From positions 12,468 to 76,467 of the forward strand of contig CAZBKB010000005.1 of the NCBI GenBank assembly GCA_964492425.1: DNA of 64,000 nt, read 5' to 3'. Positions within the stretch are counted from its first letter, which is position 1. Every line of letters starts with the position of its first letter. The translations under genes were made by a program, and so were the position numbers. The notes beneath the pieces are model-generated. The model saw only the letters and a list, made by a program, of their open reading frames with translations, was not told the DNA's origin and did no database searches. Below are positions 37,663 through 61,530 of the stretch, piece by piece. Source of the DNA: an uncultured Gammaproteobacteria bacterium (GTDB lineage Bacteria > Patescibacteriota > Microgenomatia > Curtissbacterales > GWA2-41-24).

Positions 37663-38064
37663 ATGTTTTTGGGCAGCTATGTACCTTCGTTTGATTTAAC
37701 TACGAGAAGGATTGCTTTGCCAAAAAAAATACGTGACTATCTTGCGACAAGTGAAATCATACTATCCTACGGCTTCGATAAATGCCTGTTTGGCTTTGAT
37801 ATTAAATCCTGGCAACAAGAGGCAAACAAACAGCTTAATTTACCGCTTACCGACAAACGCTCACGCAATATTCGCCGATTCTTCTTTTCTTCAGCAATCC
37901 GTATCATGCTTGATGATCAAGGCCGTTTTGTCATACCTCTTGCTTTATTGGAGTATGCGCAAATAAAAGAACCAGTAATTACTGGTTCTGGAGATCATTT
38001 TGAAATTTGGGATCAACAGATTTGGAAAGAACAACTGAAAAAGATAACAGCGCAAGAGACATGA
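37663..38064 (+). CDS. mraZ: Transcriptional regulator MraZ
   Basis: First gene of the dcw cluster. Duplicated MraZ/SpoVT-AbrB-like halves with LDDQGRFVIPLALLEYA (DxxxR-type motif). 133 aa. Confidence 0.8.
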   Translation: MFLGSYVPSFDLTTRRIALPKKIRDYLATSEIILSYGFDKCLFGFDIKSWQQEANKQLNLPLTDKRSRNIRRFFFSSAIRIMLDDQGRFVIPLALLEYAQIKEPVITGSGDHFEIWDQQIWKEQLKKITAQET

Positions 38065-38924
38065 TTCGGTTTCATACAAGCGTACTTCTAAATGAGGCGA
38101 TAGGTTTTTTGAAGCCAGAAAGCGGTAAGAGTTTTATAGATGCGACAGCTGGAGGCGGGGGTCACACACAAGACCTGCTAAAAAGAGGAGCAAGAGTTTT
38201 AGCGCTGGATAGGGATCCAGAGGCAATTGAATACTTAAAGCAAAAAAAAGAGGAAAATTTAACAGTCGAAAAAGGAAATTTTTCGCACATTTATACAATT
38301 GCACAAGAAAACGGGTTTAAAGAAGTAGACGGCATTCTTTTTGATCTTGGTGTTTCCTCTTATCAACTAGAATCAGCGCAGAGGGGATTTAGCTTTCAAA
38401 AAGATGGGCCACTAGACATGCGCATGGAGCCTGAACTTGAAGTGCAAGCTAGTAATATTGTTAATCATTTTGAGAAAAGGAGGTTGAATGAAATCTTTAA
38501 AGTATTTGGTCAAGAAAAGCTTAGTTTGGCAATTGCTGAGGCTATTTGCAGCACCCGTCAAATAAAGCTGCTTGAAACTACAAAAGATTTAGAAAAAGTA
38601 GTTTATGAGGTGTATAGGAAAAAAAACGTAAAGACAAAGTTGCATCCTGCAACAAAAGTTTTTCAGGCACTACGGATAGTAGTAAATAGCGAACTTTTAA
38701 ATTTAGAAGAAGCCTTGCCGCAGACGACACGGTTACTAAAAAAAAGTGGCCGGTTGGTAATTGTAAGTTTTCATTCTCTTGAAGATGCAATAGTCAAACG
38801 ATTCTTCAAGGACTGTAAAGAATTAAAAACGCTTACAAAACTACCTATCGGCCCAAGTATCTTAGAAATACAAAGAAATCCAAGGTCAAGAAGCGCAAAA
38901 CTTAGGGCAGCAGAAAAACTCTAA
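38061..38924 (+). CDS. rsmH: 16S rRNA (cytosine1402-N4)-methyltransferase RsmH (MraW)
   Basis: MIRFHTSVLLNEAIGFL..FIDATAGGGGHT. The start was chosen at ATG 38061 (ATGA overlap with the mraZ stop). The long ORF from 38007 probably over-extends. Confidence 0.85.
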   Translation: MIRFHTSVLLNEAIGFLKPESGKSFIDATAGGGGHTQDLLKRGARVLALDRDPEAIEYLKQKKEENLTVEKGNFSHIYTIAQENGFKEVDGILFDLGVSSYQLESAQRGFSFQKDGPLDMRMEPELEVQASNIVNHFEKRRLNEIFKVFGQEKLSLAIAEAICSTRQIKLLETTKDLEKVVYEVYRKKNVKTKLHPATKVFQALRIVVNSELLNLEEALPQTTRLLKKSGRLVIVSFHSLEDAIVKRFFKDCKELKTLTKLPIGPSILEIQRNPRSRSAKLRAAEKL

Positions 38925-38939
38925 CACAGGAGAATATTT

Positions 38940-39272
38940 ATGAAACTGCCTAGAGACTATAAAAAGGAACAATTTAATAAAATTAATCAGATTAGCATCT
39001 TGCCAACAGTTGCAGGTTCAATTCGGCTTAAAGTTGTGTTTATTTCTTTATTTTTACTTGTCGGGCTAGTTTTTGTACAACTAGTATTTGCAAATAGTTT
39101 GGCAACCGACGGTGAAAAACTTTCACTCACTCAAGAGGAAATTAGAAGGCTCGAGCGTGAAAATACAACTCTTAAAGCAGAAATAGCTGAAGTCTCAGCG
39201 CTTACAAAATTAGCCCAAAAGGCCAAGGATGACGGATTCATAAAACCAAAATCTATAACGACTATCGACTAA
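38940..39272 (+). CDS. ftsL: Cell division protein FtsL-like (single TM plus coiled coil)
   Basis: 110 aa. One TM (VVFISLFLLVGLVFVQLVF) followed by a heptad-like LTQEEIRRLERENTTLKAEIAEV. It lies between rsmH and ftsI. Confidence 0.55.
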   Translation: MKLPRDYKKEQFNKINQISILPTVAGSIRLKVVFISLFLLVGLVFVQLVFANSLATDGEKLSLTQEEIRRLERENTTLKAEIAEVSALTKLAQKAKDDGFIKPKSITTID

Positions 39273-39290
39273 TTTTGTTAAACTGATTAA

Positions 39291-41033
39291 GTGGACAGGC
39301 TCAAAATTGTTCGGGGAATAATTTATCTTGTTACACTTGCAATAATTATCAGGCTTGTATATTGGCAATTTATAGCAGGTGTACAGTCCGCCCCAAGCCA
39401 AATCAAACAAGAAGGCAGAATTCCTGCGGCAAGAGGAGAGATTTACACATCTGATAATTTTCCGATAGTGGCCAATCAGGAAGCTTTTATCTTGTTTACT
39501 AAACCAAAAGAAATTAATATAAAACCGTCAGATATAGCCACAAAAGTTGCCCCACTTTTAATATCTGAAAAATATTCAACGATGGAAGCGGAGCTTGGTG
39601 AAGATGAGTTAGAAAAAAAAAATAAAGAAATAGAACAGCAAGAAACAAGCGTAATTCAAAAGATATCAGAAGAAAAACTTTTTTGGGTGCAGCTGGCAAG
39701 AAAAATTACGAAACAAACTAAAGAAAAGATAGAAAGTTTTAATCTTAGTGGCATCGGTTTTCAGCAAGATACAAGAAGAATATACCCAGAATCCTCCATG
39801 GCTGCACACCTTTTAGGTTTTGTTGGTTCTAACCAGTTTGGTGAAGACATGGGTTATTTTGGGTTAGAAGGTTACTACGATAATCAGCTGAGGGGCAAAG
39901 ATGGGCGTGGTGGTCAAATAGAAGATCCTCTTGGTCTCCCGATACTTGTTGCAAAGTTTGAACCTATTCCGCCCAAAAAAGGGAACTCTCTTTATTTATC
40001 AATAGACAGAGGCGCCCAATTTATTGTCGAAGATAGATTAAGGCAAGCAGTTGAAAAGTATGGAGTAAAACAAGGTGTGGTAATAATTTCTGACGTAAAA
40101 AGTGGAAAAATACTTGCTATGGCATCTTCGCCTACGTACATTCCAAACCTCTTTGCAGAATTTACAGAAGATCTGTATAGAAACCCAGCTGTAGCAGATA
40201 CGTATGAACCAGGATCAACTTTTAAACTTATAACAATGGCTTCAGCTCTAGATCAGGGTTTAGTAGAACCAAATACAAAGTGCACAGTATGCACTGGACC
40301 AAGAAGAATCGGCGGTTACGAAATATCAACATGGAACAAAAAATATTATCCTAACTCAACTATGGTCGAAGTTATCCAACATTCTGACAATATAGGCATG
40401 ACATTTGTGTCCCAAAAATTGGGGATAAATAAGTTTGTGGACTATATAACTCGGTTCGGTTTCGGGCAAAAGACTGGTGTTGATCTCCAAGACGAAGCGA
40501 GTGGTGTAATCAGGCCAGTTAGCGATTGGAAAGAAATTGATCTTGCAACAGCCTCCTTTGGTCAGGGGATTGCTGTAACACCGATACAGATGATTCAAGC
40601 TGTTCAAGCAATTGCAAATGGTGGTAGGTTAATCTCACCCAAAATAGTGAATAAAATAGTATCAGATGACAAAAAAGAGATTGTTAAACCAGAAAAAGAC
40701 ATTCAAGTTATTTCCCCTAAAACGGCTTCTCAAATAACCGAAATGATGGTCAACGCAGTTGAACAGGGAGAGGCAAAAGCATTCGCACCGCAAGGCTATA
40801 GAATTGCCGGCAAAACCGGTACAGCCCAAATTCCCGTAGCTGGCCATTACGATTCTGAAAAAACTATAGCGAGTTTCATTGGCTTTGCACCAGCAGATGA
40901 CCCTAAATTTGTCATGCTCATTAGCTTTACAGAACCCTCATCATCAGTTTTTGGCTCAGAAACTGCAGCGCCAACATTCTTTGCAATTGCTAAAGACTTG
41001 TTCAATTACTGGGGAATATCGCCAAGAGACTAA
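39291..41033 (+). CDS. ftsI: Peptidoglycan D,D-transpeptidase FtsI (class B PBP)
   Basis: GTG start. N-terminal TM. Transpeptidase motifs STFK (GSTFKLIT), SxN (HSDNIGM) and KTGT (AGKTGTAQ). Confidence 0.85.
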   Translation: MDRLKIVRGIIYLVTLAIIIRLVYWQFIAGVQSAPSQIKQEGRIPAARGEIYTSDNFPIVANQEAFILFTKPKEINIKPSDIATKVAPLLISEKYSTMEAELGEDELEKKNKEIEQQETSVIQKISEEKLFWVQLARKITKQTKEKIESFNLSGIGFQQDTRRIYPESSMAAHLLGFVGSNQFGEDMGYFGLEGYYDNQLRGKDGRGGQIEDPLGLPILVAKFEPIPPKKGNSLYLSIDRGAQFIVEDRLRQAVEKYGVKQGVVIISDVKSGKILAMASSPTYIPNLFAEFTEDLYRNPAVADTYEPGSTFKLITMASALDQGLVEPNTKCTVCTGPRRIGGYEISTWNKKYYPNSTMVEVIQHSDNIGMTFVSQKLGINKFVDYITRFGFGQKTGVDLQDEASGVIRPVSDWKEIDLATASFGQGIAVTPIQMIQAVQAIANGGRLISPKIVNKIVSDDKKEIVKPEKDIQVISPKTASQITEMMVNAVEQGEAKAFAPQGYRIAGKTGTAQIPVAGHYDSEKTIASFIGFAPADDPKFVMLISFTEPSSSVFGSETAAPTFFAIAKDLFNYWGISPRD

Positions 41034-41053
41034 AAAAATGCTAATATAGTTCA

Positions 41054-41350
41054 ATGGATTCGTTTATAATCAATAATTTTATGGCAGTACAGAAGTTCAC
41101 TCCTCTCACATCAGTGATTATTGCGTTAATATTTATTTGGTCCATTTTTTGGAAAGGAACTGCACTTTGGCATGCGTCGCAAAATAGGGAGAAAATATGG
41201 TTTATCGCTATTATTTTATTAAATACAGGTGGTATTCTAGAGATAGCTTATTTGTTTTACTTTTCAAAAAGTAAGCTTGCTCTACGAGAGGCAAAGATTT
41301 TTGTAAAAACCTTGAGTTTTAAGAATATAAAAAAACTACTAACCTCATAA
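41054..41350 (+). CDS. Small membrane protein of unknown function
   Basis: 98 aa with two predicted TM helices. Embedded between ftsI and murE. No homology recognised. Confidence 0.35.
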   Translation: MDSFIINNFMAVQKFTPLTSVIIALIFIWSIFWKGTALWHASQNREKIWFIAIILLNTGGILEIAYLFYFSKSKLALREAKIFVKTLSFKNIKKLLTS

Positions 41351-41512
41351 CTGCAAACTAGCACTCATATATACATAAGTGACAACCACACGCAGTACGG
41401 TATTATGCCTATCTAGAGCCAAAAACACGTAATCTCTGCAACAAAAAAACAAATTAATGTGAATCATAAGCCTATAGAAATCTTTTGGCAGATTAATATA
41501 TAATTAACCTAC

Positions 41513-42721
41513 ATGTGGCAAAAGATAAAAAACGTTTACCATCTTACCCAAGCTCTGGCTGCCTCCGCCTACTTTGGGTTTCCCTCACGTCATTTAACAG
41601 TCCTTGCAGTGACTGGCACAGATGGCAAAACCACAACCATCAGTATGATTTATCACATCCTCAATTCGTCAGGTAAAAAAACCTCGATGGTTTCTTCACT
41701 TGGTGCACAGATTGCAGATGAATCAATTGACACGGGTTATCACGTTACTACACCCAATCCCTGGCAGCTGCAGAAACTTTTAAAAAAAGCACATATCAAA
41801 GGTTCAGAATATTTCATACTCGAAGCGACCTCTCATGGTTTAGACCAAAATAGATTAGCATTTATTAACATTCACATAGCAATCATTACAAATATCACAA
41901 GCGAGCACATTGATTATCATAAAAGTTGGTTAAATTATGCAAAATCTAAGTCAAAAATATTTAAAAATGTCAAGTATTCAATTTTAAATATTGATGACAG
42001 CAAATCATACAATTTTTTAAAAGACAAGACTTTTGGTAAAGTGATCACTTACTCACAAAATAGAGATGCGGATTATGACCTTAAAAAATATCCTATAAAA
42101 TTACAGGTTTTAGGTGAATACAATTTATCAAATGCACTTGCGGCGTGTGCGGCAACAAATACCCTGGGAATTCCCAAGCGAGATATCATAAGCTCTCTTA
42201 CTAAATTTTCGAGTGTAAAAGGAAGACTTGAAAAAATCGACATTGGACAAGCATTTGATACTATTGTTGATTTCGCACATACACCACACGCATTAGAGAC
42301 AGTATTAGCTGCTTTAAAAAAGACCAATCCGAAATCAAGAATTATTGCAGTCTTTGGGGCAGCTGGTGAAAGGGATGCATCTAAAAGGCCACTCATGGGT
42401 GAGATAGCAGCCAAATATGCAAATATCGTTGTTGTTACCGCAGAGGATCCAAGAAACGAAAATCCTAAGGATATCGCAGAAGATATCGCATCAGGTCTTA
42501 AAAAACATGGCAAAAAAGAGGATAAGGATTTTTTTATTGTGCTTGATCGCAGGAGTGCAATACAATTTGCAGTAAATAAAGCAAAAAAAGGTGATGTATT
42601 AGGCTTTTTTGGCAAAGGCCATGAAAAAAGCTTGTGCATCGGGAAAAAGGAGTGTCCATGGAATGAAATTCAAGAAGTAGAGAATGCAGTTAGAAAGCAA
42701 ATAAAAAATGGCAAAAACTGA
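41513..42721 (+). CDS. murE: UDP-N-acetylmuramoyl-tripeptide ligase MurE (short form lacking the N-terminal domain)
   Basis: Mur ligase P-loop VTGTDGKTTT near the N-terminus. EATSHGLDQNRL matches the MurE ME.SSH.L.Q.R block. C-terminal Mur ligase domain present. Confidence 0.6.
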   Translation: MWQKIKNVYHLTQALAASAYFGFPSRHLTVLAVTGTDGKTTTISMIYHILNSSGKKTSMVSSLGAQIADESIDTGYHVTTPNPWQLQKLLKKAHIKGSEYFILEATSHGLDQNRLAFINIHIAIITNITSEHIDYHKSWLNYAKSKSKIFKNVKYSILNIDDSKSYNFLKDKTFGKVITYSQNRDADYDLKKYPIKLQVLGEYNLSNALAACAATNTLGIPKRDIISSLTKFSSVKGRLEKIDIGQAFDTIVDFAHTPHALETVLAALKKTNPKSRIIAVFGAAGERDASKRPLMGEIAAKYANIVVVTAEDPRNENPKDIAEDIASGLKKHGKKEDKDFFIVLDRRSAIQFAVNKAKKGDVLGFFGKGHEKSLCIGKKECPWNEIQEVENAVRKQIKNGKN

Positions 42722-44705
42722 TTTTTCAGCGATCATTTTGGCAGCGGGAGTAGGTAAAAGGATGAACAGTGAAAAATCCAAAGTCCTTCATAAAATTGGC
42801 ACCAAGCCTATGATCCAAAAAACTGTAGAGACGTTAGAAAATTTAGCCCCACATCAGATTATTGTTGTTGCAAATAGGGCAAATAAAGACGAGCTCAAAA
42901 GCGTTATTCCAAATACTACCATAGTTATCCAAGATAAGCCTTTGGGAACTGCAGACGCCACAGCTATTGGATTACAACAGGTCAGTCCTCCTAGCATACG
43001 AGACATTGCTGTGCTTTATGGGGACGATACAGCTTTCTATAGCCCCGAAACTATCAAACATGTGTTCAACTTCCATCAAAAATCCAAAGCTAAAATCACG
43101 TTTGTCACCATCAAAAGAGAAAATCCCGAGAGGTTGGGAAGAATCATAAGAAGTGGCGAAAAACTTTTAGGAATAATTGAGGACAAAGATGCAACTGAAG
43201 AGCAAAAGAAAATTAGAGAGGTAAACGATGGTTTGTATTTCTTTGATAAAAGTTATTTAAAGGCAAATATCCACAAACTTAAGCCATCCAGAACCACTGG
43301 TGAGCTTTATATTACCGACCTTATCGCGCTCGCGTTAGAAAACCATCAAAAAGTTGAAACGTATAAACTCGATAATGAAGCTGAATGGCATGGCATTAAT
43401 ACGCAAGTTGAACTTGCGAAAGCAAACTTTAAAATCAACAAGTCAATACATATTATGGGTATTTCTGGAGCTGGAGCTTCAGCTATTGCTGGGATTTCAA
43501 AAGCCGAAGGCTATAAGGTATCTGGGTGCGATATCAATCCTAATTCTTCATACATCGACAAGTCAGAGATAAAAATTGTCAAAGGTCACAACAAAGCTCA
43601 TCTGGATTCTATCTCTTGCCTGGTTATCTCCCCCGCTGTTGTGAAATTCAATCCAAAAAACGAGGAGGTTATCAGCGCAAAAGATAAAGGCTTATCAGTT
43701 CTAACTTGGCAGGAATTCCAAGGATCCATACTTATGGAAAATAAATTAACAATTGCAGTTGCAGGAGCATACGGAAAATCAACAACAACTGCTATGATCG
43801 GCAAACTACTTTCAGACACCGGACTCGATCCAACAATAGAAATCGGCGCAAAAATGCTCAATTGGGGTAAAAATTTCAGAGTTGGTAAATCAAAATATTA
43901 CGTCTGTGAAGCAGATGAATATAACGATAATTTTTTAAATTATAGACCCGGCATTGCTGTAGTTCTGAACGTCGATTGGGACCACCCGGACTATTTCAAG
44001 AGTCGTCAACAAGCCGAAAAATCTTTCATGTCATTTATAAACAATATTAAAGACGACGGGTATCTGATAACGACACAAGAAATTATTGAAAAGATATGTA
44101 AAAATATCAGAAAAGATATAATAATTACAAAAATATCTAAATTTTCAAATATCAATCTAAAGATTATTGGAGATTTTAGAATAGAAAATGCAAATGCCGC
44201 ACTCACACTTGCCCAAATTCTCAAAATTGATCTTGAAAAAGCCCGAAAGTCAATAAATAACTTTAGTGGATTAGGGAGAAGGCTTGAGTTTAAAGGCGAA
44301 CTAGGAGGTGTAAAGTTTTATGATGATTATGCAGTTCAGCCTTATACTGTACAGAAAACTGCAAATGCTCTAAGACAAAAATATAAAAAAAGAAAAATTA
44401 CCCTAGTGCTAGAGCCTCACACATTCACAAGAGTAAATATGTTCTTCAATGATTTTGTGCAGAAATTAAAGAATACAAATGTTGACCAGATCCTCATCAC
44501 CGACGTTTACGCAGCCAGAGAAAAGGGTAATAAAAGTAGTCTATCGAGAAAATTAGCCAACGTTATAGGCAAAAAAGCATGGTACATTGGCTCTGTCAAG
44601 GATATTGCAGATAACATAAGAAATAATATGGACCTTTTTGATGTCGTTTTAACAATGGGTGCAGGTGAGGTTTACAAAGTATATGATTTAGTTAAAAATG
44701 GATAA
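42708..44705 (+). CDS. murC: Fusion protein: GlmU-type UDP-GlcNAc pyrophosphorylase domain (N) plus UDP-N-acetylmuramate--L-alanine ligase MurC (C)
   Basis: Residues 1-240 are collinear with the E. coli GlmU uridyltransferase domain (AIILAAGVGKRMNS..KVLH, GIIEDKDATEEQKKIREVNDGLY, ELYITDLIALA), with no LbH acetyltransferase domain. Residues about 245-665 are MurC (IMGISGAGASAIAG, GAYGKSTTTAMIG, CEADEYNDNF). Confidence 0.75.
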   Translation: MAKTDFSAIILAAGVGKRMNSEKSKVLHKIGTKPMIQKTVETLENLAPHQIIVVANRANKDELKSVIPNTTIVIQDKPLGTADATAIGLQQVSPPSIRDIAVLYGDDTAFYSPETIKHVFNFHQKSKAKITFVTIKRENPERLGRIIRSGEKLLGIIEDKDATEEQKKIREVNDGLYFFDKSYLKANIHKLKPSRTTGELYITDLIALALENHQKVETYKLDNEAEWHGINTQVELAKANFKINKSIHIMGISGAGASAIAGISKAEGYKVSGCDINPNSSYIDKSEIKIVKGHNKAHLDSISCLVISPAVVKFNPKNEEVISAKDKGLSVLTWQEFQGSILMENKLTIAVAGAYGKSTTTAMIGKLLSDTGLDPTIEIGAKMLNWGKNFRVGKSKYYVCEADEYNDNFLNYRPGIAVVLNVDWDHPDYFKSRQQAEKSFMSFINNIKDDGYLITTQEIIEKICKNIRKDIIITKISKFSNINLKIIGDFRIENANAALTLAQILKIDLEKARKSINNFSGLGRRLEFKGELGGVKFYDDYAVQPYTVQKTANALRQKYKKRKITLVLEPHTFTRVNMFFNDFVQKLKNTNVDQILITDVYAAREKGNKSSLSRKLANVIGKKAWYIGSVKDIADNIRNNMDLFDVVLTMGAGEVYKVYDLVKNG

Positions 44706-45714
44706 GTCAAAAATTGAAGAAGCTAAGAATATACTCGGCCCTTTGAGAGTTTACGAAAAAGAACCACTCTCAAAGCACACATACTTTAAAATTGGTGGTC
44801 TAGCAGATTTATTTTTTGAAGCCAAAAACACCGATGATTTTACTCTGGCTTTGGAAACTGCCTTTAGACTAAAGATACCTTTCGTTGTTTTAGGTAGTGG
44901 TGCAAATGTTTTGGTCTCCGACGAAGGCTATCCAGGCATCGTTATTAAAAATAAAACAGACGGGGTCAAGCTTGTCGGTATTAAAGGAACAATGGGCAGG
45001 GAAGGAGCTGGTATAAAAGAAGCACTTGTTTGGGTCGCATCTGGAACACTCATGAACAGGCTTGCTCGTTTTACTATCGATCAAGGCTTAGAAGGTTTGG
45101 AATTTCTGCTTTCTGTTCCCGGTACTATTGGCGGCGGCATTAAAATAAACTCTCATTATGAGGTTGAAAAAGGTGAATTTATTGGCAATTCGCTGGCAGC
45201 AGCTACACTTTTTGACCCAACAAATGGTGAAACAAAAAAGGTGGATAGAAAATATTTCGAGTTCGCCTATGACGCTTCTAAAATCCAAAAAACAGGAGAA
45301 ATTGTAATAGATGCGACTTTTAGGGTCACAAAAGCAAAAGATAAAAACGCTCTTTGGCAAAAAGCTACAAACGATGTAAAAAGACGAAACGATGAGCAAC
45401 CTATAGGGATTGCTTGTTCAGGTTGCATTTTTCAAAACATCAGCCACGATGATGCAATGAGACTTGCAACACCCAACATAACAACATCTACGGGATATAT
45501 AATACAAAGCTTAGGACTCAAAGGAACAAAAATAGGTGGTGCTCAAATATCGGAAAAACATGCTAATTATATTTTAAACATAAATGATGCTACGGCAAAC
45601 GATGTTTACAATTTGATAAACTTAATTAAACTTAAAGTGAAAAAAACATATGGCTTAGATTTAAAAGAGGAAATATTTCTTGTAGGAAAATTTGATGGCA
45701 AAGCTGTTAATTAA
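44698..45714 (+). CDS. murB: UDP-N-acetylenolpyruvoylglucosamine reductase MurB
   Basis: FAD-binding N-terminus YFKIGGLADLFFEAKN...IPFVVLGSGANVLVSDEGYPGIVI. 338 aa. Confidence 0.8.
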   Translation: MDKSKIEEAKNILGPLRVYEKEPLSKHTYFKIGGLADLFFEAKNTDDFTLALETAFRLKIPFVVLGSGANVLVSDEGYPGIVIKNKTDGVKLVGIKGTMGREGAGIKEALVWVASGTLMNRLARFTIDQGLEGLEFLLSVPGTIGGGIKINSHYEVEKGEFIGNSLAAATLFDPTNGETKKVDRKYFEFAYDASKIQKTGEIVIDATFRVTKAKDKNALWQKATNDVKRRNDEQPIGIACSGCIFQNISHDDAMRLATPNITTSTGYIIQSLGLKGTKIGGAQISEKHANYILNINDATANDVYNLINLIKLKVKKTYGLDLKEEIFLVGKFDGKAVN

Positions 45715-46948
45715 AGGTCCGGCCAAACTTTCCGGTACAATTAAAATAGCCGGTAACAAAAACTCGGTGCTTCCAATTATGGCAGCGAGTCTTCTTGCGA
45801 AAGACCCAAGCACGATTGAAAATGTGCCTCACATATCCGACGTAGCTGTGCTTGCTCAGCTGCTAAAGCTAACTGGTGTAGAAACGAGATTTCATTCAAC
45901 TTCAAAACTTACTGTCAATCCGGCAAAAGTAAAAAAAGTGGAATTTCCTAATGAATTCACAGAAAAATTAAGAGCATCTGTCATCTTGATTGCTCCAATG
46001 CTTGCCCGTATTGGCTATATAAAAATGGGATATCCAGGGGGAGACATCATAGGCAGACGTCCTCTCGATACTCATTTTCAAGTATTAGAAGCTATGGGAG
46101 CAAAAGTGAAGAAAGAAGAAGACTACTTTGAAGTTTTCGCGGATAAATTAACGGGAGCTGAAATATTTCTTCATGAAGCATCTGTAACAGCCACAGAAAA
46201 TGCCATAATTGCAGCATCGGTTGCAACTGGCCAAACAGTAATCAAACGAGCTGCTTCCGAACCTCACGTCGTAGACCTATGTGAATATTTAATAAAAATA
46301 GGAGCAAAGATTGAAGGGGTCGGGAGTAATGTTTTGAAAATAACAGGCAGCGAAAACTTTTATGGAACAACTCATTCTATCCGTCCGGATCATATAGAAG
46401 TTGGTACTTTTGCAATTTTGGCAGCTGTTACTAAAAGTAGGCTTGAATTAGTTCCTGTTATTAAAGAAGATTTGGATATGACGCTTCTAACTCTAAAAAA
46501 ATTTGGGGTTAAATACGAAATTAAGAATAATAGGCTATATATTATCCCTGCCAAATTAACTGCAATTGAAAAGGTAGTAACAGACATCTGGCCAGGTTTT
46601 CCAACAGACCTCATGGCACCAATGATAGTTTTAGCAACGCAAGCGGAAGGTGTTACTATTCTCCATGACTGGATGTATGAGTCACGGATGTTTTTTGTTG
46701 ACAAACTTCTTTCTATGGGAGCAAAAGTGGAAATAGCAGACCCGCATAGAGTATTTGTATACGGTCCAACAAAACTTCATGGCCAAAAATTAGATACGCC
46801 GGACATCCGCGCTGGCATGGCACTTGTTATTGCTGCCCTGGCAGCATCTGGAAAAAGCGAAATTGATAAAGCAGAACTTATCGAACGTGGTTACGAAAAC
46901 ATTGTCGAGCGCCTCTCTGCTTTAGGGGCAAAAGTTACGAAAATTTAA
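45695..46948 (+). CDS. murA: UDP-N-acetylglucosamine 1-carboxyvinyltransferase MurA
   Basis: MAKLLIKGPAKLSGTIKIAGNKNSVLPIMAASLLA is the canonical MurA N-terminus. ATG 45695 was chosen over TTG 45692. Confidence 0.85.
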   Translation: MAKLLIKGPAKLSGTIKIAGNKNSVLPIMAASLLAKDPSTIENVPHISDVAVLAQLLKLTGVETRFHSTSKLTVNPAKVKKVEFPNEFTEKLRASVILIAPMLARIGYIKMGYPGGDIIGRRPLDTHFQVLEAMGAKVKKEEDYFEVFADKLTGAEIFLHEASVTATENAIIAASVATGQTVIKRAASEPHVVDLCEYLIKIGAKIEGVGSNVLKITGSENFYGTTHSIRPDHIEVGTFAILAAVTKSRLELVPVIKEDLDMTLLTLKKFGVKYEIKNNRLYIIPAKLTAIEKVVTDIWPGFPTDLMAPMIVLATQAEGVTILHDWMYESRMFFVDKLLSMGAKVEIADPHRVFVYGPTKLHGQKLDTPDIRAGMALVIAALAASGKSEIDKAELIERGYENIVERLSALGAKVTKI

Positions 46949-47098
46949 ACTGGATGTTTTATATTGCAGTTCACCTAAGTGGTAAATCTGCCGAGGATAA
47001 AATCTCGCTGCTTACTAATTATGAAATAATTGAAGACCTCAATAAGAAAAATAGCTCTTATTCCTATTTGATAAAAAAAACAAAATTGCCAGGGTCAG

Positions 47099-48229
47099 AT
47101 GTTTGATAAACTGAAAAAAATTCTAGGAAGGACTTATTATCCTCTCAATAAAATAGAATTAAATAAAAAAAGGTTACTAAAAAATTACGATTATCTTAAG
47201 TCTCTTGACAATAATTTACAAATAGCACCTGTTGTCAAAAGCAATGCATATGGTCATGGTATAGAAGAAGTTTCAAAAATACTAGACAGTCAAAAACCGC
47301 CATTTTTTTGTGTTGATAGTCTATTTGAAGCGTATCAACTTAAAAAAGCGAAGATTAAATCACCCATACTCATTATGGGTTTCGTGGACGGAAGAAATCT
47401 TAAAGCCAGGAAACTACCTTTTTCTTTTGCGGTTTTCGATTTGGACTTTGCTAAAGCCTTAAATAAATATCAACCCGGTGCAAAGGTACATATTAAAGTT
47501 GATACTGGTATGAATCGTATAGGCGTATCGTTAAAAAGTTTAGCCAAATTTCTCTACCAAATTAAAAAATTAAAAAACCTCGAAGTCGAAGGCTTAATGT
47601 CGCACCTTTCATCCCCTAGGTCGTCCGAAAGTTATACCAACTATCAAATTGATAATTACAAAAAGGCGATCAGAATATTTGAGGATTCAGGCTTTTTCCC
47701 CAAATGGAAGCATTTAGCAGCATCAGGGGGACTTTTTAACATAAGGCCCAAAACTTTAGAAAAGATATCAAACCTGGCTCGCTGTGGAATTGCACTTTAT
47801 GGAGCAAGTGGAGAAGGCCAAACAAGGCCTGTCATTGAGCTTAAATCTCAAATAGTCCAAATTAAAAAATTAAACAAGGGAGACCTTGTTGGTTATGATC
47901 GTACGTATAAAGTCAAAGGGCCAACAACAATTGGAATTTTGCCGATAGGTTATAACGACGGGATAGACAGAAAGTTGTCCAATAACGGCTACGTTTCACA
48001 TACATATAATAAGGTAAATTGTCCAATAATTGGTAGGGTGAGTATGAATATAACAACAATAGATATCACCAAAGTTAAAAAAGCAAAAGTGGGAGACGAA
48101 ATCACTGTTATATCGTCAAAGCTAACTGACATAAACAGCATTACAAATTTAGCAATACAAATAAACACAATTCCGCACGATATATTGGTTCATTTACACC
48201 CAAAATCCATCAAAAGAATTATCGTTTAG
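47099..48229 (+). CDS. alr: Alanine racemase
   Basis: PLP-binding lysine motif APVVKSNAYGHG. About 376 aa with a C-terminal beta domain. Confidence 0.8.
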   Translation: MFDKLKKILGRTYYPLNKIELNKKRLLKNYDYLKSLDNNLQIAPVVKSNAYGHGIEEVSKILDSQKPPFFCVDSLFEAYQLKKAKIKSPILIMGFVDGRNLKARKLPFSFAVFDLDFAKALNKYQPGAKVHIKVDTGMNRIGVSLKSLAKFLYQIKKLKNLEVEGLMSHLSSPRSSESYTNYQIDNYKKAIRIFEDSGFFPKWKHLAASGGLFNIRPKTLEKISNLARCGIALYGASGEGQTRPVIELKSQIVQIKKLNKGDLVGYDRTYKVKGPTTIGILPIGYNDGIDRKLSNNGYVSHTYNKVNCPIIGRVSMNITTIDITKVKKAKVGDEITVISSKLTDINSITNLAIQINTIPHDILVHLHPKSIKRIIV

Positions 48230-48282
48230 CCCCATAGTTTGCTTCAATCAATGATCATGGGATATAATACAACTTTGATCTT

Positions 48283-49482
48283 ATGAACCTAACGCTTTAT
48301 GAAGAAGTAAGAGGTTGGAAAGTTCCTTTTCATAAATCTAAAACAACGTTAGCAAAAAATTACCTTAGACTTCTTTCAAATGTAGAGATTATTGGAGTTG
48401 CTGGTAGTGTTGGCAAAACCATAACGCAAAACACGATCTACTCTGTTCTCTCACAAAAATACCATACGGTGGTGGGAGAAGAGAATCTGGATCCTACATT
48501 TAGAATCCCAAAAACAATTTTACAAACGAAACCGTGGCATAAATATTTAATTTTGGAATATGGTATCGAACACCCTGGAGAAATGGATTATTACACAAGT
48601 CTTGTGACTCCAAAATATGCTGTAGTAACTACAATTTCCGAAGAACATCTAAAATATTTTAAAGATTTGGAAGGAGTTTTCGAAGAAGAGTCAAAAATAG
48701 TCAAAAATTTACCAAAAAATGCCTACGCAATACTTAATGCAGATGACGCTATGACTCATAAACTGGCAACACTGACCAGGGCAACGGTCGTTTGGTATGG
48801 TCAACGTGCTAAACGCGGTGTAAAAATATCTCATTACCAACAAAACCTGCATGGTTCGAAATTTAGAATACATTACGCAGGAAACATTGCGTCGGTCCAT
48901 ACAAAAATAGTAGGTAAACATCAACTAGTGTCTGCTTATGCGGCTGCAACTATAGGTATTCTGTCAGGTTTAACTATAAAACAAATTGCCAAGGGTTTAT
49001 CCCTGGCAACTGCTCCCAATCACAGACTTAATCTTAAAATAACTGAGCATGTAAACATTATCGATGACACTTACAATTCTTCACCTAAAGCAGCCATTGA
49101 GGCAGTTAAAACCTTAACTCAACTTGGCAAAAGTAAAAAGAAAATAGTAGTTCTTGGGACAATGAGAGATTTAGGTAGTCAAACAAAAAGTGCTCATAAA
49201 AAGCTTGGTTTGCAAATATCCAAAACTAGAATAAACTATTTGCTAACCATCGGTAGAGGCGCACACGTTATTTCTCAAAGTGCCAAAAAACAGGGTTTTA
49301 AAGGCAAAATTACAAATGTTAAAAGTACTAGAGAAGCTATAAAGTTTCTCAAACCTATTGTCACAAAAAAGACTGTGGTACTTATCAAAGGGTCAAGACA
49401 CGAACACTTAGAAAGGGTGGTTCTTGGATTGCTTCATAAATCTACAGCAATTGAATGTTATCATTGTGGAAAGCTAAAATAG
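48283..49482 (+). CDS. murF: UDP-MurNAc-pentapeptide synthetase MurF (short form)
   Basis: Mur ligase P-loop IGVAGSVGKTITQ, followed by a VGEENLDPTFRIPKTIL block (MurF GN.NN.IG.P.T.L-like). It is the only Mur ligase not otherwise accounted for in the cluster. Confidence 0.55.
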   Translation: MNLTLYEEVRGWKVPFHKSKTTLAKNYLRLLSNVEIIGVAGSVGKTITQNTIYSVLSQKYHTVVGEENLDPTFRIPKTILQTKPWHKYLILEYGIEHPGEMDYYTSLVTPKYAVVTTISEEHLKYFKDLEGVFEEESKIVKNLPKNAYAILNADDAMTHKLATLTRATVVWYGQRAKRGVKISHYQQNLHGSKFRIHYAGNIASVHTKIVGKHQLVSAYAAATIGILSGLTIKQIAKGLSLATAPNHRLNLKITEHVNIIDDTYNSSPKAAIEAVKTLTQLGKSKKKIVVLGTMRDLGSQTKSAHKKLGLQISKTRINYLLTIGRGAHVISQSAKKQGFKGKITNVKSTREAIKFLKPIVTKKTVVLIKGSRHEHLERVVLGLLHKSTAIECYHCGKLK

Positions 49483-49505
49483 AAATAGTGTTGGGCAAAT
49501 AGTAT

Positions 49506-50540
49506 ATGTTTCAAATTCTTGGATTAATCCTTCTCTCGTTTTTTACAGTAAGCATACTTTCTGTTCCTTTTATTAATTTCCTTTATAAAATAAAATTCCA
49601 AAGACAAAAACAAAAAACTACTGATATATTCGAGGGAAGAACAGTAATATTTGATAAACTCCATGCGCACAAAGCAGGCACACCTGTTGGTGGTGGCGCA
49701 TTAATTATCTTTGTTGTCACCGTCCTGTATTTATTTATTATTTCAACCATGCCTTATTTAGGAATGGCAAGAACAGCTGTTTATCCCTATAGCAAAGAAG
49801 TACAAATCCTACTGTTTACATTCCTTTCATTTGGCGTCCTTGGACTCTATGACGATCTTCGTAAAACATTCGGTTTCAAAAGAGCAAATTTTTGGGGGAT
49901 TCGCGCAAGATTCAAATTTATAGCACAGTGGGTTCTGGCATTTATTATTGCATCTACCCTATATTTTTCCCTTGGTATTGATATTGTCAACGTAAGATTT
50001 TTTGATGTTATGAGTTTAGGTTATTTTTATATCCCATTTGCCGCATTTGTGATTGTCTCATTTACAAACGCCGTAAATATTTCAGATGGCTTGGATGGGC
50101 TGGCATCAGGGCTGCTTTTAATTTGTATCACTGCATTCCTTGTAATATCCGGAGCAATTTTAGACACAACATTATCTGTATTTTTGGGTCTTTGGATAGG
50201 TGCGCTCATTGCCTTTTTATACTTTAATATCTGGCCGGCTCGTATTATTCTTGGTGATGTCGGAGCCCTCTCATTCGGTGCGACTTTAGCTGTTGCCGGC
50301 TTGATTTTGGGAAAACCAATTGCATTAGTTCTGATTGGGGGCATGTTTGTTGTAGAGGTAGCATCATCTGCTGCACAGCTTCTGTCAAAAAAAATTCGCG
50401 GAAAAAAATTATTTGAGGTTGCACCACTACACCTTTTAGTCCAACACAAAGGTTGGGAAGAGCCAAAAATCGTATCCCGTTTCTGGCTGGCGCAATTAAT
50501 TTTAGCAGTGCTGGGTCTTTGGCTATCATTTAAAAAATGA
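49506..50540 (+). CDS. mraY: Phospho-N-acetylmuramoyl-pentapeptide transferase MraY
   Basis: NAVNISDGLDGLASG (NAxNxTDGLDGLA signature) and 10 TM helices. Confidence 0.85.
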   Translation: MFQILGLILLSFFTVSILSVPFINFLYKIKFQRQKQKTTDIFEGRTVIFDKLHAHKAGTPVGGGALIIFVVTVLYLFIISTMPYLGMARTAVYPYSKEVQILLFTFLSFGVLGLYDDLRKTFGFKRANFWGIRARFKFIAQWVLAFIIASTLYFSLGIDIVNVRFFDVMSLGYFYIPFAAFVIVSFTNAVNISDGLDGLASGLLLICITAFLVISGAILDTTLSVFLGLWIGALIAFLYFNIWPARIILGDVGALSFGATLAVAGLILGKPIALVLIGGMFVVEVASSAAQLLSKKIRGKKLFEVAPLHLLVQHKGWEEPKIVSRFWLAQLILAVLGLWLSFKK

Positions 50541-50568
50541 TTTCGGCCTCATTAAATCTAATTTAATA

Positions 50569-51915
50569 ATGACTAGCAGAAAAAAAGTTATTGTTTTAGG
50601 TCTCGGTATCGAAGGTTTATCACTAGTCAAATATTTTTCCAAAAATTACGAAGTATCAGTTTTTGATGAAAAAGTAGAAAGTGATATTGAAAAACAAGCA
50701 ACAGAAGCAGTCAAAGGATATGGTGCTAAGCTTTATTTAGGCAATATAAAAAAGTTACCGAAATTTGATATTATAGCCCGTTCCCCAGCAGTTAGGCCAG
50801 ATTATCCACTGATTTCAAAATTAACAAAAAAAGGGTCTTTATTAACCAGTGCTACAAAAATATTTTTCAACATATGCAAAGGAGAAATAATTGGAGTTAC
50901 AGGCACCAAAGGCAAAGGTACTACCTGTACTCTAATCTATAAGTTGTTAAAAACTCAATACAATAATGTTCATCTTGCGGGCAATATTGGTATCCCCATG
51001 CTGGACATATTGCCTAAAATTAAAAAGTCTTCCAAAGTCGTTTTAGAACTTTCCAGTTTTCAATTAATGGACTTGGGAAAAAGTCCCCACATTGCTGTAG
51101 CTTTAATGGCTACATCAGAGCATTTAAACTGGCACAAAGATCAAAACGAATATTTAAAAGCAAAAAGTAACATTTCAAAGTATCAAAATACAACCGACTA
51201 TGCTGTAATCAATGCCGATTTCCCAAAATCAATAAAGCTCACAAAAGAAACAAAAGCAAAAAAATATTTTTTTTCAACCACAAAAGAAACAAATGGTGTA
51301 TACGTAAAGTCAAATAACATTATATCAGCTATCGGTGAACAAGAGCGAGTCTGTACAGCTACAGAAGTTCTTCTTCCTGGCAGACACAATTTGCAAAACG
51401 TTCTTGCAAGTTGCACTGTTGCAAAAATCTATGGCATAACTAGCAGCAATATACGAAAGGTTTTAAAAAATTTTAAAGGATTGGAACACAGACTGCAGCT
51501 TGTAGCCACAAAAGAAGGTGTAAAGTATTACAACGACTCATTCTCTACAATACCCGAAACAACAATTGCAGCAATGGAAGCATTTAATGGTCCTAAAATT
51601 TTAGTCCTTGGTGGATCCTCAAAAAATTCTGATTTTAGAAAATTAATTAATAAAATCGAAACTACTTCAACAGTAAAAAACATAGTCCTTATAGGAAAGG
51701 AGAGTATCAGGATAAAAGGTTTAATCAAAGATGACCGAACGAGAAAAAAAATAATAACAGGGCTGAATTCAATGGCAGAAGTTGTTACAAAATGTAAAAA
51801 TTTATCAAAATCTGGAGATATCGTATTGCTTTCCCCCGCTTGTGCATCTTTTGATATGTTCAAAAATTATAAAGATCGCGGAAATCAGTTTATAAAAGCA
51901 GTCAACCTATTATGA
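50569..51915 (+). CDS. murD: UDP-N-acetylmuramoylalanine--D-glutamate ligase MurD
   Basis: IGVTGTKGKGTTCTLI P-loop and GNIGIPMLD (MurD GN.G.P). 448 aa. Confidence 0.8.
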   Translation: MTSRKKVIVLGLGIEGLSLVKYFSKNYEVSVFDEKVESDIEKQATEAVKGYGAKLYLGNIKKLPKFDIIARSPAVRPDYPLISKLTKKGSLLTSATKIFFNICKGEIIGVTGTKGKGTTCTLIYKLLKTQYNNVHLAGNIGIPMLDILPKIKKSSKVVLELSSFQLMDLGKSPHIAVALMATSEHLNWHKDQNEYLKAKSNISKYQNTTDYAVINADFPKSIKLTKETKAKKYFFSTTKETNGVYVKSNNIISAIGEQERVCTATEVLLPGRHNLQNVLASCTVAKIYGITSSNIRKVLKNFKGLEHRLQLVATKEGVKYYNDSFSTIPETTIAAMEAFNGPKILVLGGSSKNSDFRKLINKIETTSTVKNIVLIGKESIRIKGLIKDDRTRKKIITGLNSMAEVVTKCKNLSKSGDIVLLSPACASFDMFKNYKDRGNQFIKAVNLL

Positions 51916-53033
51916 GAGTTGATCAAGGAAGGTTACGGCTAAAATCGCAGCGCAAACAGTTAGACATGCCGCTTGTCATTTCAACTGCCGCACTTATTTT
52001 AATTGGTTTAATAATAATATATGACGCTTCTGTGGTTGCAGCTTACCGTGATTTTAACGATAAATTCCATTTTTTTGCTAACCAACTAATATGGGCAATG
52101 GTCGGTACTTTTTCATTAATTTTCTTCACTTTTTTCGATTACAAAAAAATTATAAAGATTGCACCTTATATATTCTTGGCAAGTTTCATATTATTGCTTC
52201 TTGTACTCGTACCATTTATAGGTACAGAAGTTTTGGGGGCAAGGCGTTGGATAAATATAGGTACTTTTACTTTTCAGCCATCGGAATTTGCCAAACTTGC
52301 TGTTGTTTTTTATGCAACTTATATAATTTCAAAATTTGAAAATTTCAAAATGCGCTTAAAGGATACTTTAATTGTTTATTTTTTACCAATATTTTTTGTT
52401 ATGTTGTCAGTTGTTATTCAACCGGATTTAGGCACGGCACTTATTTTTTTTGGCGTTGCTGCCATAATATATTTTACAGCCGGAGCTCCCATCATTCACT
52501 TTTTACTTACGGCACCCTTTTTAGTGCTGGCAGTCATAGGTGCAATAATTACTCACCCTTACAGAATAGAACGTATAAAAGCTTTTTTAGACCCAAGCTA
52601 CGATCCACAAGGATCCTCATACCATATTAATCAAATAATCATTGCGCTGAAAACTGGCGGCCTATTTGGAGTAGGTCTAGGTTCATCAAGGAGTAAATTT
52701 GAGTTCATTCCCGAAGTCCATAGCGATGCTATATTTGCAGTTGTAGTCGAAGAAGTAGGTCTAGTTGGTGCACTAATACTTATATCAATATTTATTTTTT
52801 TAATAACAAGAGCAATAAAAATTGCCAGAGAATCATACGATTATGAAAGTAAAGTTTTAGCAAGTGGCATAGTGGCGCTCATTGCCACGCAAACTCTTAT
52901 TAATCTTTCAGCCATAGTTGCCCTAATACCCCTCACGGGCGTTCCCCTCCCTTTTATTTCCTATGGAGGCTCATCTCTTTTTGTGACATTAACTGCCATA
53001 GGTATCTTACTAAATGTAAGGAGACAATCATGA
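51912..53033 (+). CDS. ftsW: Peptidoglycan glycosyltransferase FtsW (SEDS family)
   Basis: 10-TM SEDS architecture. Conserved RWINIGTFTFQPSEFAKL and C-terminal PLTGVPLPFISYGGSSL. Confidence 0.8.
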   Translation: MRVDQGRLRLKSQRKQLDMPLVISTAALILIGLIIIYDASVVAAYRDFNDKFHFFANQLIWAMVGTFSLIFFTFFDYKKIIKIAPYIFLASFILLLLVLVPFIGTEVLGARRWINIGTFTFQPSEFAKLAVVFYATYIISKFENFKMRLKDTLIVYFLPIFFVMLSVVIQPDLGTALIFFGVAAIIYFTAGAPIIHFLLTAPFLVLAVIGAIITHPYRIERIKAFLDPSYDPQGSSYHINQIIIALKTGGLFGVGLGSSRSKFEFIPEVHSDAIFAVVVEEVGLVGALILISIFIFLITRAIKIARESYDYESKVLASGIVALIATQTLINLSAIVALIPLTGVPLPFISYGGSSLFVTLTAIGILLNVRRQS

Positions 53034-54121
53034 AAAAAGTTTTAATCTGCGGCGGTCACCTAACACCTGCGCTAGCAGTTATAGAACAGTTGAAAAGAGA
53101 AAAGATTGAAATAATCTTTATCGGTCGAAAACATTCGATTGAAGGTTCGAAGAATCTCTCAACAGAATTTGTAAAAATTAAAGCTCTAAATATTAAGTTT
53201 TTACCACTTTTAACAGGCAGACTTCAAAGAAAAATCACCACCCATACGTTTATCTCAATCATTAAAATTCCAATAGGTCTGCTTCAAAGTTTTATTTATC
53301 TTCTTCTCAACAAGCCCAATGTGGTTGTTTCTTTTGGGAGCTATCTTTCAACCCCGGTTGTCATTTCTGCATGGCTTCTGGGTATACCATCCATAACCCA
53401 CGAACAAGCAACAAAGATTGGTATCGCCAACAAAATAAATTCTCTCTTTACTCGCGAATTTTACTCTGCTTGGCAGCTGCAAGGATTAGACAGTCGCTCA
53501 GTAATTGGCAACCCTACTAGGCTTTGCATTTATCAAAAATCAGCAAAAAATAAACGTATACAACAATTTCTAAAAACTAATAAAAAAATTCTCTATATTA
53601 CGGGGGGAAATTTAGGCTCTCACTATATTAATAGAATAATTTTTGAAAGCCCAAAGAGGTTAAAAGAATATAAGATTATCCATCAACTTGGTAATGCAAA
53701 TTACAAAGGAGATCACCAGACGGCAGGAAAAATTAATGATTCAAACTATTTTGCCCTTCCTTATATAGAGGACTCGGATATAGGTGCAGTTCTCAACTGC
53801 GCACATATTGTTGTATCAAGGTCTGGCGCCAATACTATCTGGGAACTCGCGCTCCTTAAAAAAGTTTCGCTTTTAATTCCCTTGCCATTTGCAGGTGCAA
53901 AGGAGCAGGAACATAATGCAAAGGTGCTGGAAGAAGCTGGTTCAGCTCTCATAATTCATCAAAAAAATCTAACACTCCAGACCTTGGAATCTGGCCTAAA
54001 AGAGATTAGTGCCAATTATGCAAAATACACAAAGAACGCGCACAATTTTTCTGGCAAGCTTAAAAAAGACGCAGCAACTGTTCTTAAAAATCATATTCTT
54101 AAATATCTGAAAAATGCTTAA
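53030..54121 (+). CDS. murG: UDP-GlcNAc--undecaprenyl-PP-MurNAc-pentapeptide GlcNAc transferase MurG
   Basis: ICGGHLTPALAV (G-loop 1), GG(N)LGS and the C-terminal SRSGANTIWELALL region. Confidence 0.8.
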   Translation: MKKVLICGGHLTPALAVIEQLKREKIEIIFIGRKHSIEGSKNLSTEFVKIKALNIKFLPLLTGRLQRKITTHTFISIIKIPIGLLQSFIYLLLNKPNVVVSFGSYLSTPVVISAWLLGIPSITHEQATKIGIANKINSLFTREFYSAWQLQGLDSRSVIGNPTRLCIYQKSAKNKRIQQFLKTNKKILYITGGNLGSHYINRIIFESPKRLKEYKIIHQLGNANYKGDHQTAGKINDSNYFALPYIEDSDIGAVLNCAHIVVSRSGANTIWELALLKKVSLLIPLPFAGAKEQEHNAKVLEEAGSALIIHQKNLTLQTLESGLKEISANYAKYTKNAHNFSGKLKKDAATVLKNHILKYLKNA

Positions 54122-56077: not shown

Positions 56078-56148
56078 GCTAAAACTCTTGCAAATAAACA
56101 GCCCCTGTGTTAAATTGTGCAGGCTTTTAGCACTAACTTCATGATTCC

Positions 56149-60101: not shown

Positions 60102-60103
60102 AT

Positions 60104-61487: not shown

Positions 61488-61530
61488 AATGGGCATTCTT
61501 TTTTACCCTGTAGTATAATTTTCACGCCTA

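Follow-up and report, generated by a model that had tools for sequence, protein, structure and literature searches.

A GlmU-type uridyltransferase domain fused to MurC in the division and cell wall cluster of Candidatus Curtissbacteria

The stretch of DNA analysed here (the window) comprises 64,000 nucleotides of contig CAZBKB010000005.1 from assembly GCA_964492425.1, deposited as an uncultured Gammaproteobacteria bacterium and placed by GTDB in the Curtissbacterales of the Patescibacteriota. At positions 42708-44705 it carries one open reading frame (ORF), glmU_N~murC, in which the uridyltransferase half of GlmU is joined to a complete MurC ligase. This chimera is likely to be a bifunctional enzyme, combining a GlmU-type N-acetylglucosamine 1-phosphate (GlcNAc-1-P) uridylyltransferase with MurC, which arose by fusion of neighbouring genes and serves co-expression or assembly. 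Its parts, the N-terminal half of GlmU and MurC, are ordinary; their combination is new as a type of Mur chimera.

Domain composition of the chimera

An earlier note on this DNA, made from the sequence alone, had described a 665-residue ORF holding the uridyltransferase half of GlmU and a complete MurC, but not the left-handed beta-helix (LbH) acetyltransferase half of GlmU. The Pfam and NCBIfam assignments agree with that description. The reading frame is unbroken, with no internal stop and no change of frame. The Pfam domain NTP_transferase covers residues 8-242, and residues 7-246 align with positions 2-239 of the 452 positions of the GlmU model TIGR01173 at 196 bits. No NCBIfam alignment to the LbH half and no Pfam Hexapep match were found anywhere in the chimera ORF. 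The whole-protein GlmU score (194.5-196 bits) lies below the curated cut-off of 366.85 and the match ends at position 239; the N-terminal domain is a homologue of the N-terminal half of GlmU only. The LbH domain proved absent when tested for, which excludes the chimera from the bifunctional GlmU family.

The PDB sequence search agrees with a GlmU-type N-terminal domain: the best 17 matches are all GlmU (E 6e-35 to 6e-23), followed by the archaeal ST0452 (3e-7) and RmlA (5e-4). The other identity that the earlier note had considered, RmlA, is rejected, as the rmlA_long and rmlA models reach only 66 and 44 bits (cut-offs 320 and 361). The nucleotidyltransferase signature, L-x2-G-x-G-T-x-M-x4-P-K in GlmU, reads LAAGVGKRM...SK. 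In E. coli GlmU, the residues that we take to act in binding of uracil, GlcNAc or Mg2+ or in catalysis are R18, K25, Q76, G81, T82, Y103, D105, G140, E154, N169, and N227; they correspond to R18, K25, Q75, G80, T81, Y104, D107, G144, E158, N173, and N231 of the window protein, so that all eleven are present. When the 120 listed homologues of the chimera were aligned with E. coli GlmU, these positions were found to be kept in 103-120 of them, most in at least 116, and the catalytic R18 and K25 in 119-120. Given that these residues are present and conserved, the domain looks like an active GlcNAc-1-P uridylyltransferase, as far as its sequence can tell.

The remainder of the protein holds, in order, the Pfam domains Mur_ligase (PF01225, residues 247-341), Mur_ligase_M (PF08245, 351-464), and Mur_ligase_C (PF02875, 524-653), and residues 247-665 align with positions 2-449 of the NCBIfam MurC model TIGR01082 at 332.6 bits. 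Models of other ligases score far lower (Mpl 175, MurD 78, and MurE 44 bits). According to an L-INS-i alignment with E. coli MurC, the glycine loop of the N-terminal MurC domain, the GKSTT P-loop, the E-x-D-E and H-P-D metal sites, the RR pair, and the P-H...R of the C-terminal domain are invariant in the chimera family. The motif DDYAVQP, which replaces the DDYGHHP of E. coli, is also invariant, and the equivalent of E. coli R383 is a threonine, so that the pocket for the amino acid is not the same as in E. coli. This variant of the motif is no defect, because it also occurs in MurC of Clostridium (33-36% identity; loci L044-L063, L072, L073, and L080). Residues 247-665 are very probably a true MurC, predicted from these motifs and profiles to add L-Ala to UDP-N-acetylmuramic acid (UDP-MurNAc).

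An AlphaFold2 model of the chimera, built with 29 family members as input, has a mean predicted local distance difference test (pLDDT) of 91 and a predicted template modelling score of 0.85. Its N-terminal part matches GlmU structures, and the MurC part can be superposed on the H. influenzae enzyme with a target-normalised template modelling (TM) score of 0.82-0.84 and a root-mean-square deviation of 2.7 Å; no single chain in the PDB comparison spans both parts. The helix at the junction is the start of the GlmU inter-domain arm, and there is no flexible linker between it and MurC. The junction has a pLDDT of 89-92, and the spacing from W227 to H248 is fixed at 22 residues in 98 of the 120 listed homologues. 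Both halves are under similar constraint among these homologues, with mean pairwise identities of 53% and 58%.

Reality and distribution of the fusion

A search of 5.8 billion clustered proteins recovered at least 120 non-redundant full-length homologues of 648-695 residues and 52-72% identity, all with both sets of domains, from ENA, JGI, NCBI, and Logan assemblies. Those with a named source come nearly all from Candidatus Curtissbacteria (for example, KKR88077.1 and OGD88616.1), and the databases annotate them merely as MurC, as 'sugar phosphate nucleotidyltransferase', or as hypothetical proteins. A scan of GTDB, with one genome per species, gave 24 complete chimeras, three ORFs truncated by contig ends that still span the junction, and four fragments with a single domain. 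In a gene map based on hidden Markov models (HMMs), every complete locus has the order ftsI, DUF5652, murE (about 400 codons), glmU_N~murC (about 665 codons), murB, and murA. A protein identical to that of the window (P0001) comes from an independent assembly, on ENA contig k141_366959, and a 77-kb NCBI/ENA contig carries a second member of its 90% cluster.

These data also answer the concern that a sequencing or assembly error might have merged two adjacent genes. Because glmU_N and murC share 4 nt in outgroups, one wrong base could imitate a fusion. Yet the in-frame junction recurs in 24 complete species-level genomes and in at least 120 homologues that stem from many independent assemblies and sources, and the identical protein was assembled independently; for practical purposes, this refutes the explanation.

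Several other contigs with the Curtissbacteria-type gene order and chimeras 52-57% identical to that of the window (L008, L010, L016, L017, L024-L026, and L035, among others) are likewise titled 'uncultured Gammaproteobacteria bacterium', and one contig with this order is titled 'Candidatus Saccharimonadales'. These titles look like placeholders or wrong taxonomy.

Free, MurE-fused and MurC-fused forms

The relatives of the N-terminal domain were sought in an exhaustive HMMER search of 1.84 billion representatives clustered at 50% identity, where the whole Curtissbacteria chimera family amounts to one representative. Most of the nearest relatives, some of which come from Patescibacteria genomes, stand free and have about 250 residues (92 of the best 150, some of them possibly fragments), and this form without an acetyltransferase half is the common one among them. 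The relatives also include seven MurE~GlmU_N proteins and a second, divergent GlmU_N~MurC (P0167). The closest long relatives are not GlmU proteins with an LbH domain but GlmU_N fused to HAD hydrolase domains, with sizes of about 470-500 residues (P0163, P0154, and P0158) and, in one case, with an additional GNAT domain (GlmU_N~HAD~GNAT, P0139). Single cases of GlmU_N fused to an APH-fold kinase, an SDR, or a C39 peptidase were also seen (P0141, P0159, and P0228).

Gene order in other lineages points to the way in which the fusion may have arisen. The outgroups L038, L039, L064 (Candidatus Daviesbacteria), and L066 have a separate glmU_N of 250 codons between murE and murC, which shares 4 nt (ATGA or GTGA) with the start of murC and whose product ends 8-12 residues past the helix equivalent to the junction helix of the chimera. 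In Woesebacteria and their relatives, glmU_N is fused to the upstream murE instead, and murC is fused to murB; this MurE~GlmU_N family has at least 120 members. Since the outgroups keep overlapping separate genes and Woesebacteria fuse the same gene otherwise, the chimera is best explained by an end-to-end join of translationally coupled neighbours. A free-standing glmU_N of 250 codons would have been joined to the downstream murC in the Curtissbacteria lineage, for which loss of the stop codon at the 4-nt ATGA overlap would suffice.

In two further genomes, Curtissbacteria RIFCSPHIGHO2_01_FULL_41_11 and Patescibacteria H41-bin136, the MurC at the same position is fused to another module (L033 4657-7281, 875 residues; L034 5354-8071, 906 residues), consisting of an archaeal-GlmU/RmlA-long-type nucleotidyltransferase and a HAD hydrolase domain. 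In a rough neighbour-joining tree, all Curtissbacteria N-terminal domains form one clade and P0167 groups with a free-standing copy. This tree is weak and poorly resolved; it hints that GlmU_N~MurC fusions may have arisen more than once.

Proposed function and its alternatives

The likely bifunctional enzyme would have two independent active sites in one polypeptide. The N-terminal domain would convert UTP and GlcNAc-1-P into UDP-GlcNAc and pyrophosphate, MurA and MurB would convert this product into UDP-MurNAc, and the C-terminal module of the chimera would add L-Ala. The earlier note had correctly placed murB and murA immediately downstream, and both score above their NCBIfam cut-offs. MurA is the predicted consumer of the UDP-GlcNAc made by the N-terminal domain. 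The GlcNAc-1-P itself would have to come by a route without the LbH acetyltransferase.

The suggestion in the same note that the fusion reflects channelling of precursors fares poorly. Direct hand-over between the fused sites is unlikely, because MurA and MurB act between them and the two activities lie three steps apart. Co-expression or complex assembly is favoured instead, since sister lineages fuse the uridyltransferase to MurE or leave it free. The fusion would thereby fix co-expression at 1:1 and probably holds the first committed nucleotide-sugar step within an assembly of Mur enzymes; it may also be close to neutral. Published Mur chimeras, too, join non-consecutive enzymes, an arrangement taken to promote stability, stoichiometry, or the formation of a Mur complex (PMC10214165).

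Several points weigh against such a bifunctional enzyme, or against a fusion of little selective value. T17 of the GlmU signature is Lys or Arg in most members of the chimera family, and P24 is Ser in the window protein. The isolated MurC part falls 2.5 bits short of the trusted cut-off of TIGR01082 (335.1), and a deletion makes its central domain about 25-40 residues shorter than that of E. coli MurC. Canonical GlmU is a trimer held together by its LbH domain, and both the oligomeric state and the activity of an N-terminal domain without it are assumed here. Lastly, the L033 and L034 fusions hint at selection for a physical link, beyond neutrality.

This last point would suit an adaptive hub, in which the chimera forms the core of a metabolon and recruits MurA, MurB, and the MurE and MurF that lack N-terminal domains, so that UDP-sugar intermediates stay local without adjacent active sites. 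The junction, which appears rigid, of fixed length, and confidently modelled, the loss of the N-terminal domains of MurE and MurF in this lineage, and the alternative chimeras formed from the same gene block in sister lineages are all in keeping with a hub. So are the retention of a MurC fusion with a non-orthologous nucleotidyltransferase in L033 and L034 and the in vitro binding of Mur chimeras to other Mur ligases (PMC10214165). Neutral fusion of overlapping genes in streamlined genomes, however, predicts the same pattern, and outgroups function with separate genes; a hub of this kind is therefore considered unlikely.

With a MurU-like N-terminal domain, the fusion to MurC would be biochemically understandable for a scavenging episymbiont, since UDP-MurNAc made from salvaged muramic acid could be handed straight to the fused MurC as a consecutive step. 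The fusion of GlmU_N to an APH-fold kinase in P0141 indeed recalls the pairing of AmgK with MurU. The profile evidence goes the other way: the MurU model NF045761 (cut-off 250 bits) is outside the 25 best NCBIfam matches, the 25th of which scores 28 bits, compared with 196 for GlmU, and the MurU structure 4Y7T is unmatched at E <= 1e-3. In addition, the GlmU residues that contact GlcNAc are conserved, the genes for de novo synthesis of UDP-MurNAc, murA and murB, follow directly, and orthologous copies, free-standing or fused to MurE, adjoin glmS (L006, L043, and L081). A MurU identity is rejected on these grounds, and salvage through the chimera is quite improbable.

Still less probable is a non-catalytic N-terminal domain that binds UDP-GlcNAc or UTP as a sensor and regulates MurC. 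The loss of the LbH trimerisation domain and the T17K change in the signature would be compatible with such a role, but R18, K25, and the metal ligands D105 and N227 are kept in 116-120 of the 120 listed homologues, no second GlmU was found in the window, and free-standing orthologues are common among the nearest relatives.

The missing acetyltransferase and the source of GlcNAc-1-P

The earlier note had remarked that the chimera leaves open where the acetyltransferase activity for glucosamine 1-phosphate resides, and this still holds: no homologue of the GlmU C-terminal half, of GlmS, or of GlmM and no GNAT protein was recognised within the window. Two hexapeptide proteins of about 190 residues resemble WcaF and maltose O-acetyltransferases, and their match to GlmU is confined to 45 residues of generic hexapeptide sequence (32-35 bits), so they were rejected as its C-terminal half. 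A 533-residue amidotransferase upstream of mraZ was rejected as GlmS, being PurF-like and without a SIS domain; it scores 233 bits with TIGR01134 (cut-off 350), with the whole model covered. The presence of this gene is odd for a lineage in which de novo purine synthesis is not expected. In a search with the GlmS of Woesebacteria, the matches listed (at least 120) were taken up by Woesebacteria and Microgenomates (at least 66% identity), which is uninformative on GlmS in Curtissbacteria.

The sister lineage offers a candidate. In the closed Woesebacteria genome CP066686.1 (L006 3003-13289), the gene order is murA, a CofD-family gene, glmS, a GNAT gene, murE~glmU_N, a hypothetical gene, and murC~murB; locus L007 belongs to the same arrangement. 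The glmS gene is bona fide (622 bits). The product of the GNAT gene and the C-terminal domain of P0139 (residues 466-626) share 33% identity (E 4e-30). Homologues of this GNAT were examined at five metagenomic loci, where they adjoin murE in two (L081 and L083) and lie 3.5 kb from glmU_N in one (L085). The murE of L083 is fused to glmU_N, and that of L081 is cut by the contig edge, with glmS on the other side of the GNAT gene. A comparison of the L006 GNAT with the PDB gave no GNA1-like match, the best being a phosphinothricin acetyltransferase (E 0.0045), and a tblastn search against the window and the loci gathered up to then found only the protein itself.

Since it occurs both fused to GlmU_N and encoded close to it, this GNAT family is a reasonable candidate for the replacement of the LbH acetyltransferase, which would give a eukaryote-like order of steps. 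For the organism of the window, salvage is equally possible. A wider proposal, which must be called tentative and rather doubtful, is that Microgenomates and other Patescibacteria use an undescribed, non-canonical route to UDP-GlcNAc, in which a GNAT replaces the LbH domain, maybe with a HAD-type phosphomutase, or in which salvage proceeds through an anomeric kinase. The domains of P0139 and the place of the GNAT gene between glmS and murE~glmU_N may be compared with the first of these. The uridyltransferase would then be a built-in subunit of a Mur assembly, by way of MurC or MurE, compensating for the lost N-terminal domains of MurE and MurF.

Relation to known systems and significance

GlmU is regarded as an essential enzyme, bifunctional in all bacteria, and as a drug target. 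Compared with the bifunctional GlmU of E. coli (1HV9 and 1FWY), M. tuberculosis (3D8V), and S. pneumoniae (1G95), the chimera has the same uridyltransferase fold, signature, and ligands for UDP-GlcNAc and Mg2+, and its collinearity with them extends into the first turns of the helical arm between the domains. There it continues into MurC and not into LbH, losing the acetyltransferase and trimerisation domain, and it differs as well in the Lys or Arg at T17. With MurC structures it shares the three-domain architecture, the P-loop, the metal ligands, and the Arg and His residues of the C-terminal domain; it differs in the 246-residue N-terminal extension, the shorter central domain, and the DDYAVQP motif.

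The catalogue of natural Mur chimeras includes MurE-MurF, MurC-Ddl, MurC-MurB, MurG-MurC, MurD-FtsW, and MraY-MurG (Shirakawa et al. 2023, PMC10214165), and a MurB/C chimera has been described in Verrucomicrobium (PMC4803751). The GlmU_N~MurC type is not in the former catalogue, whose survey excluded unidentified species and therefore left out metagenome-assembled genomes (MAGs) of the candidate phyla radiation (CPR). Like these proteins, the chimera is a lineage-specific single polypeptide from adjacent genes of the division and cell wall (dcw) cluster, and such chimeras often join non-consecutive steps. It thus fits the definition of a Mur chimera. Its partner is new: unlike those listed, it is a hexosamine-pathway enzyme (half of GlmU) and not a Mur, Ddl, or Fts protein. 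No paper that connects GlmU with CPR, Patescibacteria, or Curtissbacteria came up in full-text literature searches. The sequences of the chimera have been public, under generic names, since the first Curtissbacteria MAGs.

The closest relative in design is the MurE~GlmU_N of Woesebacteria and other Patescibacteria (for example, QQG41164.1), which carries this truncated uridyltransferase as well, at about 45% identity, and stems from the same block, murE-glmU_N-murC-murB. There, however, the uridyltransferase is C-terminal and joined to its upstream neighbour, and MurC is fused to MurB. In the AmgK/MurU salvage pathway, the small stand-alone sugar-1-phosphate uridylyltransferase MurU (Pseudomonas putida, 4Y7T) belongs to the same superfamily and supplies the Mur pathway, but the N-terminal domain of the chimera has no significant match to its model or structure. 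The split route of eukaryotes and archaea (the GNAT GNA1, the mutase AGM1, and UAP1; archaeal ST0452) also uncouples uridylyl transfer from LbH, and the GlmU_N of the relatives is linked to a GNAT. It differs in that the uridyltransferase of the chimera is of the bacterial GlmU type, whereas the GNAT of the relatives has no detectable similarity to GNA1 structures and was not found in the window.

The chimera involves no new biochemical principle, and its significance lies less in channelling than in what it shows of the lineage: GlmU is truncated and sits in the dcw operon, sister lineages have alternative fusions, to MurE or to MurC, and the question arises where GlcNAc-1-P originates. A whole lineage keeps only the uridyltransferase half of GlmU, wired into an operon for cell division and cell wall synthesis, and the nearest relatives in the databases suggest that many other Patescibacteria do likewise. 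The protein links hexosamine activation to the Mur ligases and is a new entry for the catalogue of natural Mur chimeras. The series of free, MurE-fused, and MurC-fused forms is a clean natural experiment on the fusion of translationally coupled neighbours. The source of GlcNAc-1-P in CPR bacteria becomes a testable question, with a concrete GNAT candidate.

Gene neighbourhood

The chimera lies in a dcw cluster with the order mraZ, rsmH, ftsL, ftsI, DUF5652, murE, glmU_N~murC, murB, murA, alr, murF, mraY, murD, ftsW, murG, ftsQ, ftsA, and ftsZ (Table 1). Its start shares 14 nt with the stop of murE, and its stop shares 8 nt with the start of murB. The profile match of MurE begins near position 89 in the MurE models and that of MurF (399 residues, 48283-49482) at about position 63 of the MurF model, and both are therefore without the N-terminal domain. 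MurE has about 400 residues in most complete Curtissbacteria loci, with a few ORFs of 419-444, and 418-467 residues in the outgroups.

Table 1. Positions of the chimera, its parts, and other features in the window, and of the candidate GNAT gene in locus L006
Feature	Position	Strand	Remarks
glmU_N~murC chimera ORF	42708..44705	+	665 residues, ATG start
GlmU-type sugar-1-phosphate uridylyltransferase domain (predicted)	42708..43445	+	residues 1-246; Pfam, NCBIfam, and PDB matches
Junction	43404..43445	+	helix of residues 233-241 runs straight into MurC strand beta-1 (246-250)
MurC N-terminal (UDP-binding) domain	43446..43730	+	glycine-rich loop G251-x-x-G254-x-G256
MurC central ATPase domain	43758..44099	+	P-loop G356-K357-S-T-T; E401/D403/E404; H426-P-D
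MurC C-terminal domain	44277..44666	+	R524-R525; DDYAVQP (539-545); P570-H571...R575
murE	41513..42721	+	402 residues, without N-terminal domain; directly upstream, translationally coupled to the chimera
murB (UDP-N-acetylmuramate dehydrogenase)	44698..45714	+	TIGR00179, 170.7 bits (cut-off 144.5)
murA (UDP-GlcNAc 1-carboxyvinyltransferase)	45695..46948	+	TIGR01072, 489.8 bits (cut-off 392.7)
dcw cluster around the chimera	37663..57252	+	mraZ to ftsZ
ManC-like guanylyltransferase	29456-30556		glycan cluster
WbaP-like sugar transferase	30566-31216		glycan cluster
WcaF-like hexapeptide acetyltransferases (two)	758-1312 and 15603-16199		glycan cluster
GNAT, 161 residues	L006 7496-7981	-	divergent, between glmS and murE~glmU_N

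Besides the genes in Table 1, a small DUF5652 membrane protein (41054-41350) is kept between ftsI and murE in most Curtissbacteria loci. In the region 45714-48283 of the window, alr directly follows murA, and the whole cluster is without ddl; most of the Curtissbacteria loci compared (L009-L037) have ddl at this place. The PurF-like Ntn amidotransferase gene (35872-37473) lies directly upstream of mraZ, and the same place is occupied by its counterpart in L001, L014, and L074.

The first part of the window (1-31200) is a large surface-glycan cluster, which encodes several GT2/GT4 glycosyltransferases, GT39-like multi-span membrane proteins, a Wzx-like flippase, and an O-antigen-ligase-like protein. 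Directly past ftsZ, the region 57472-63823 looks, judging from the translations, like an integrated restriction-modification island. It holds a tyrosine-recombinase-like gene (57472-58488), a C5 DNA-methyltransferase-like gene (60104-61195) with an adjoining putative endonuclease, and an Mrr-like gene on the minus strand (62993-63823).

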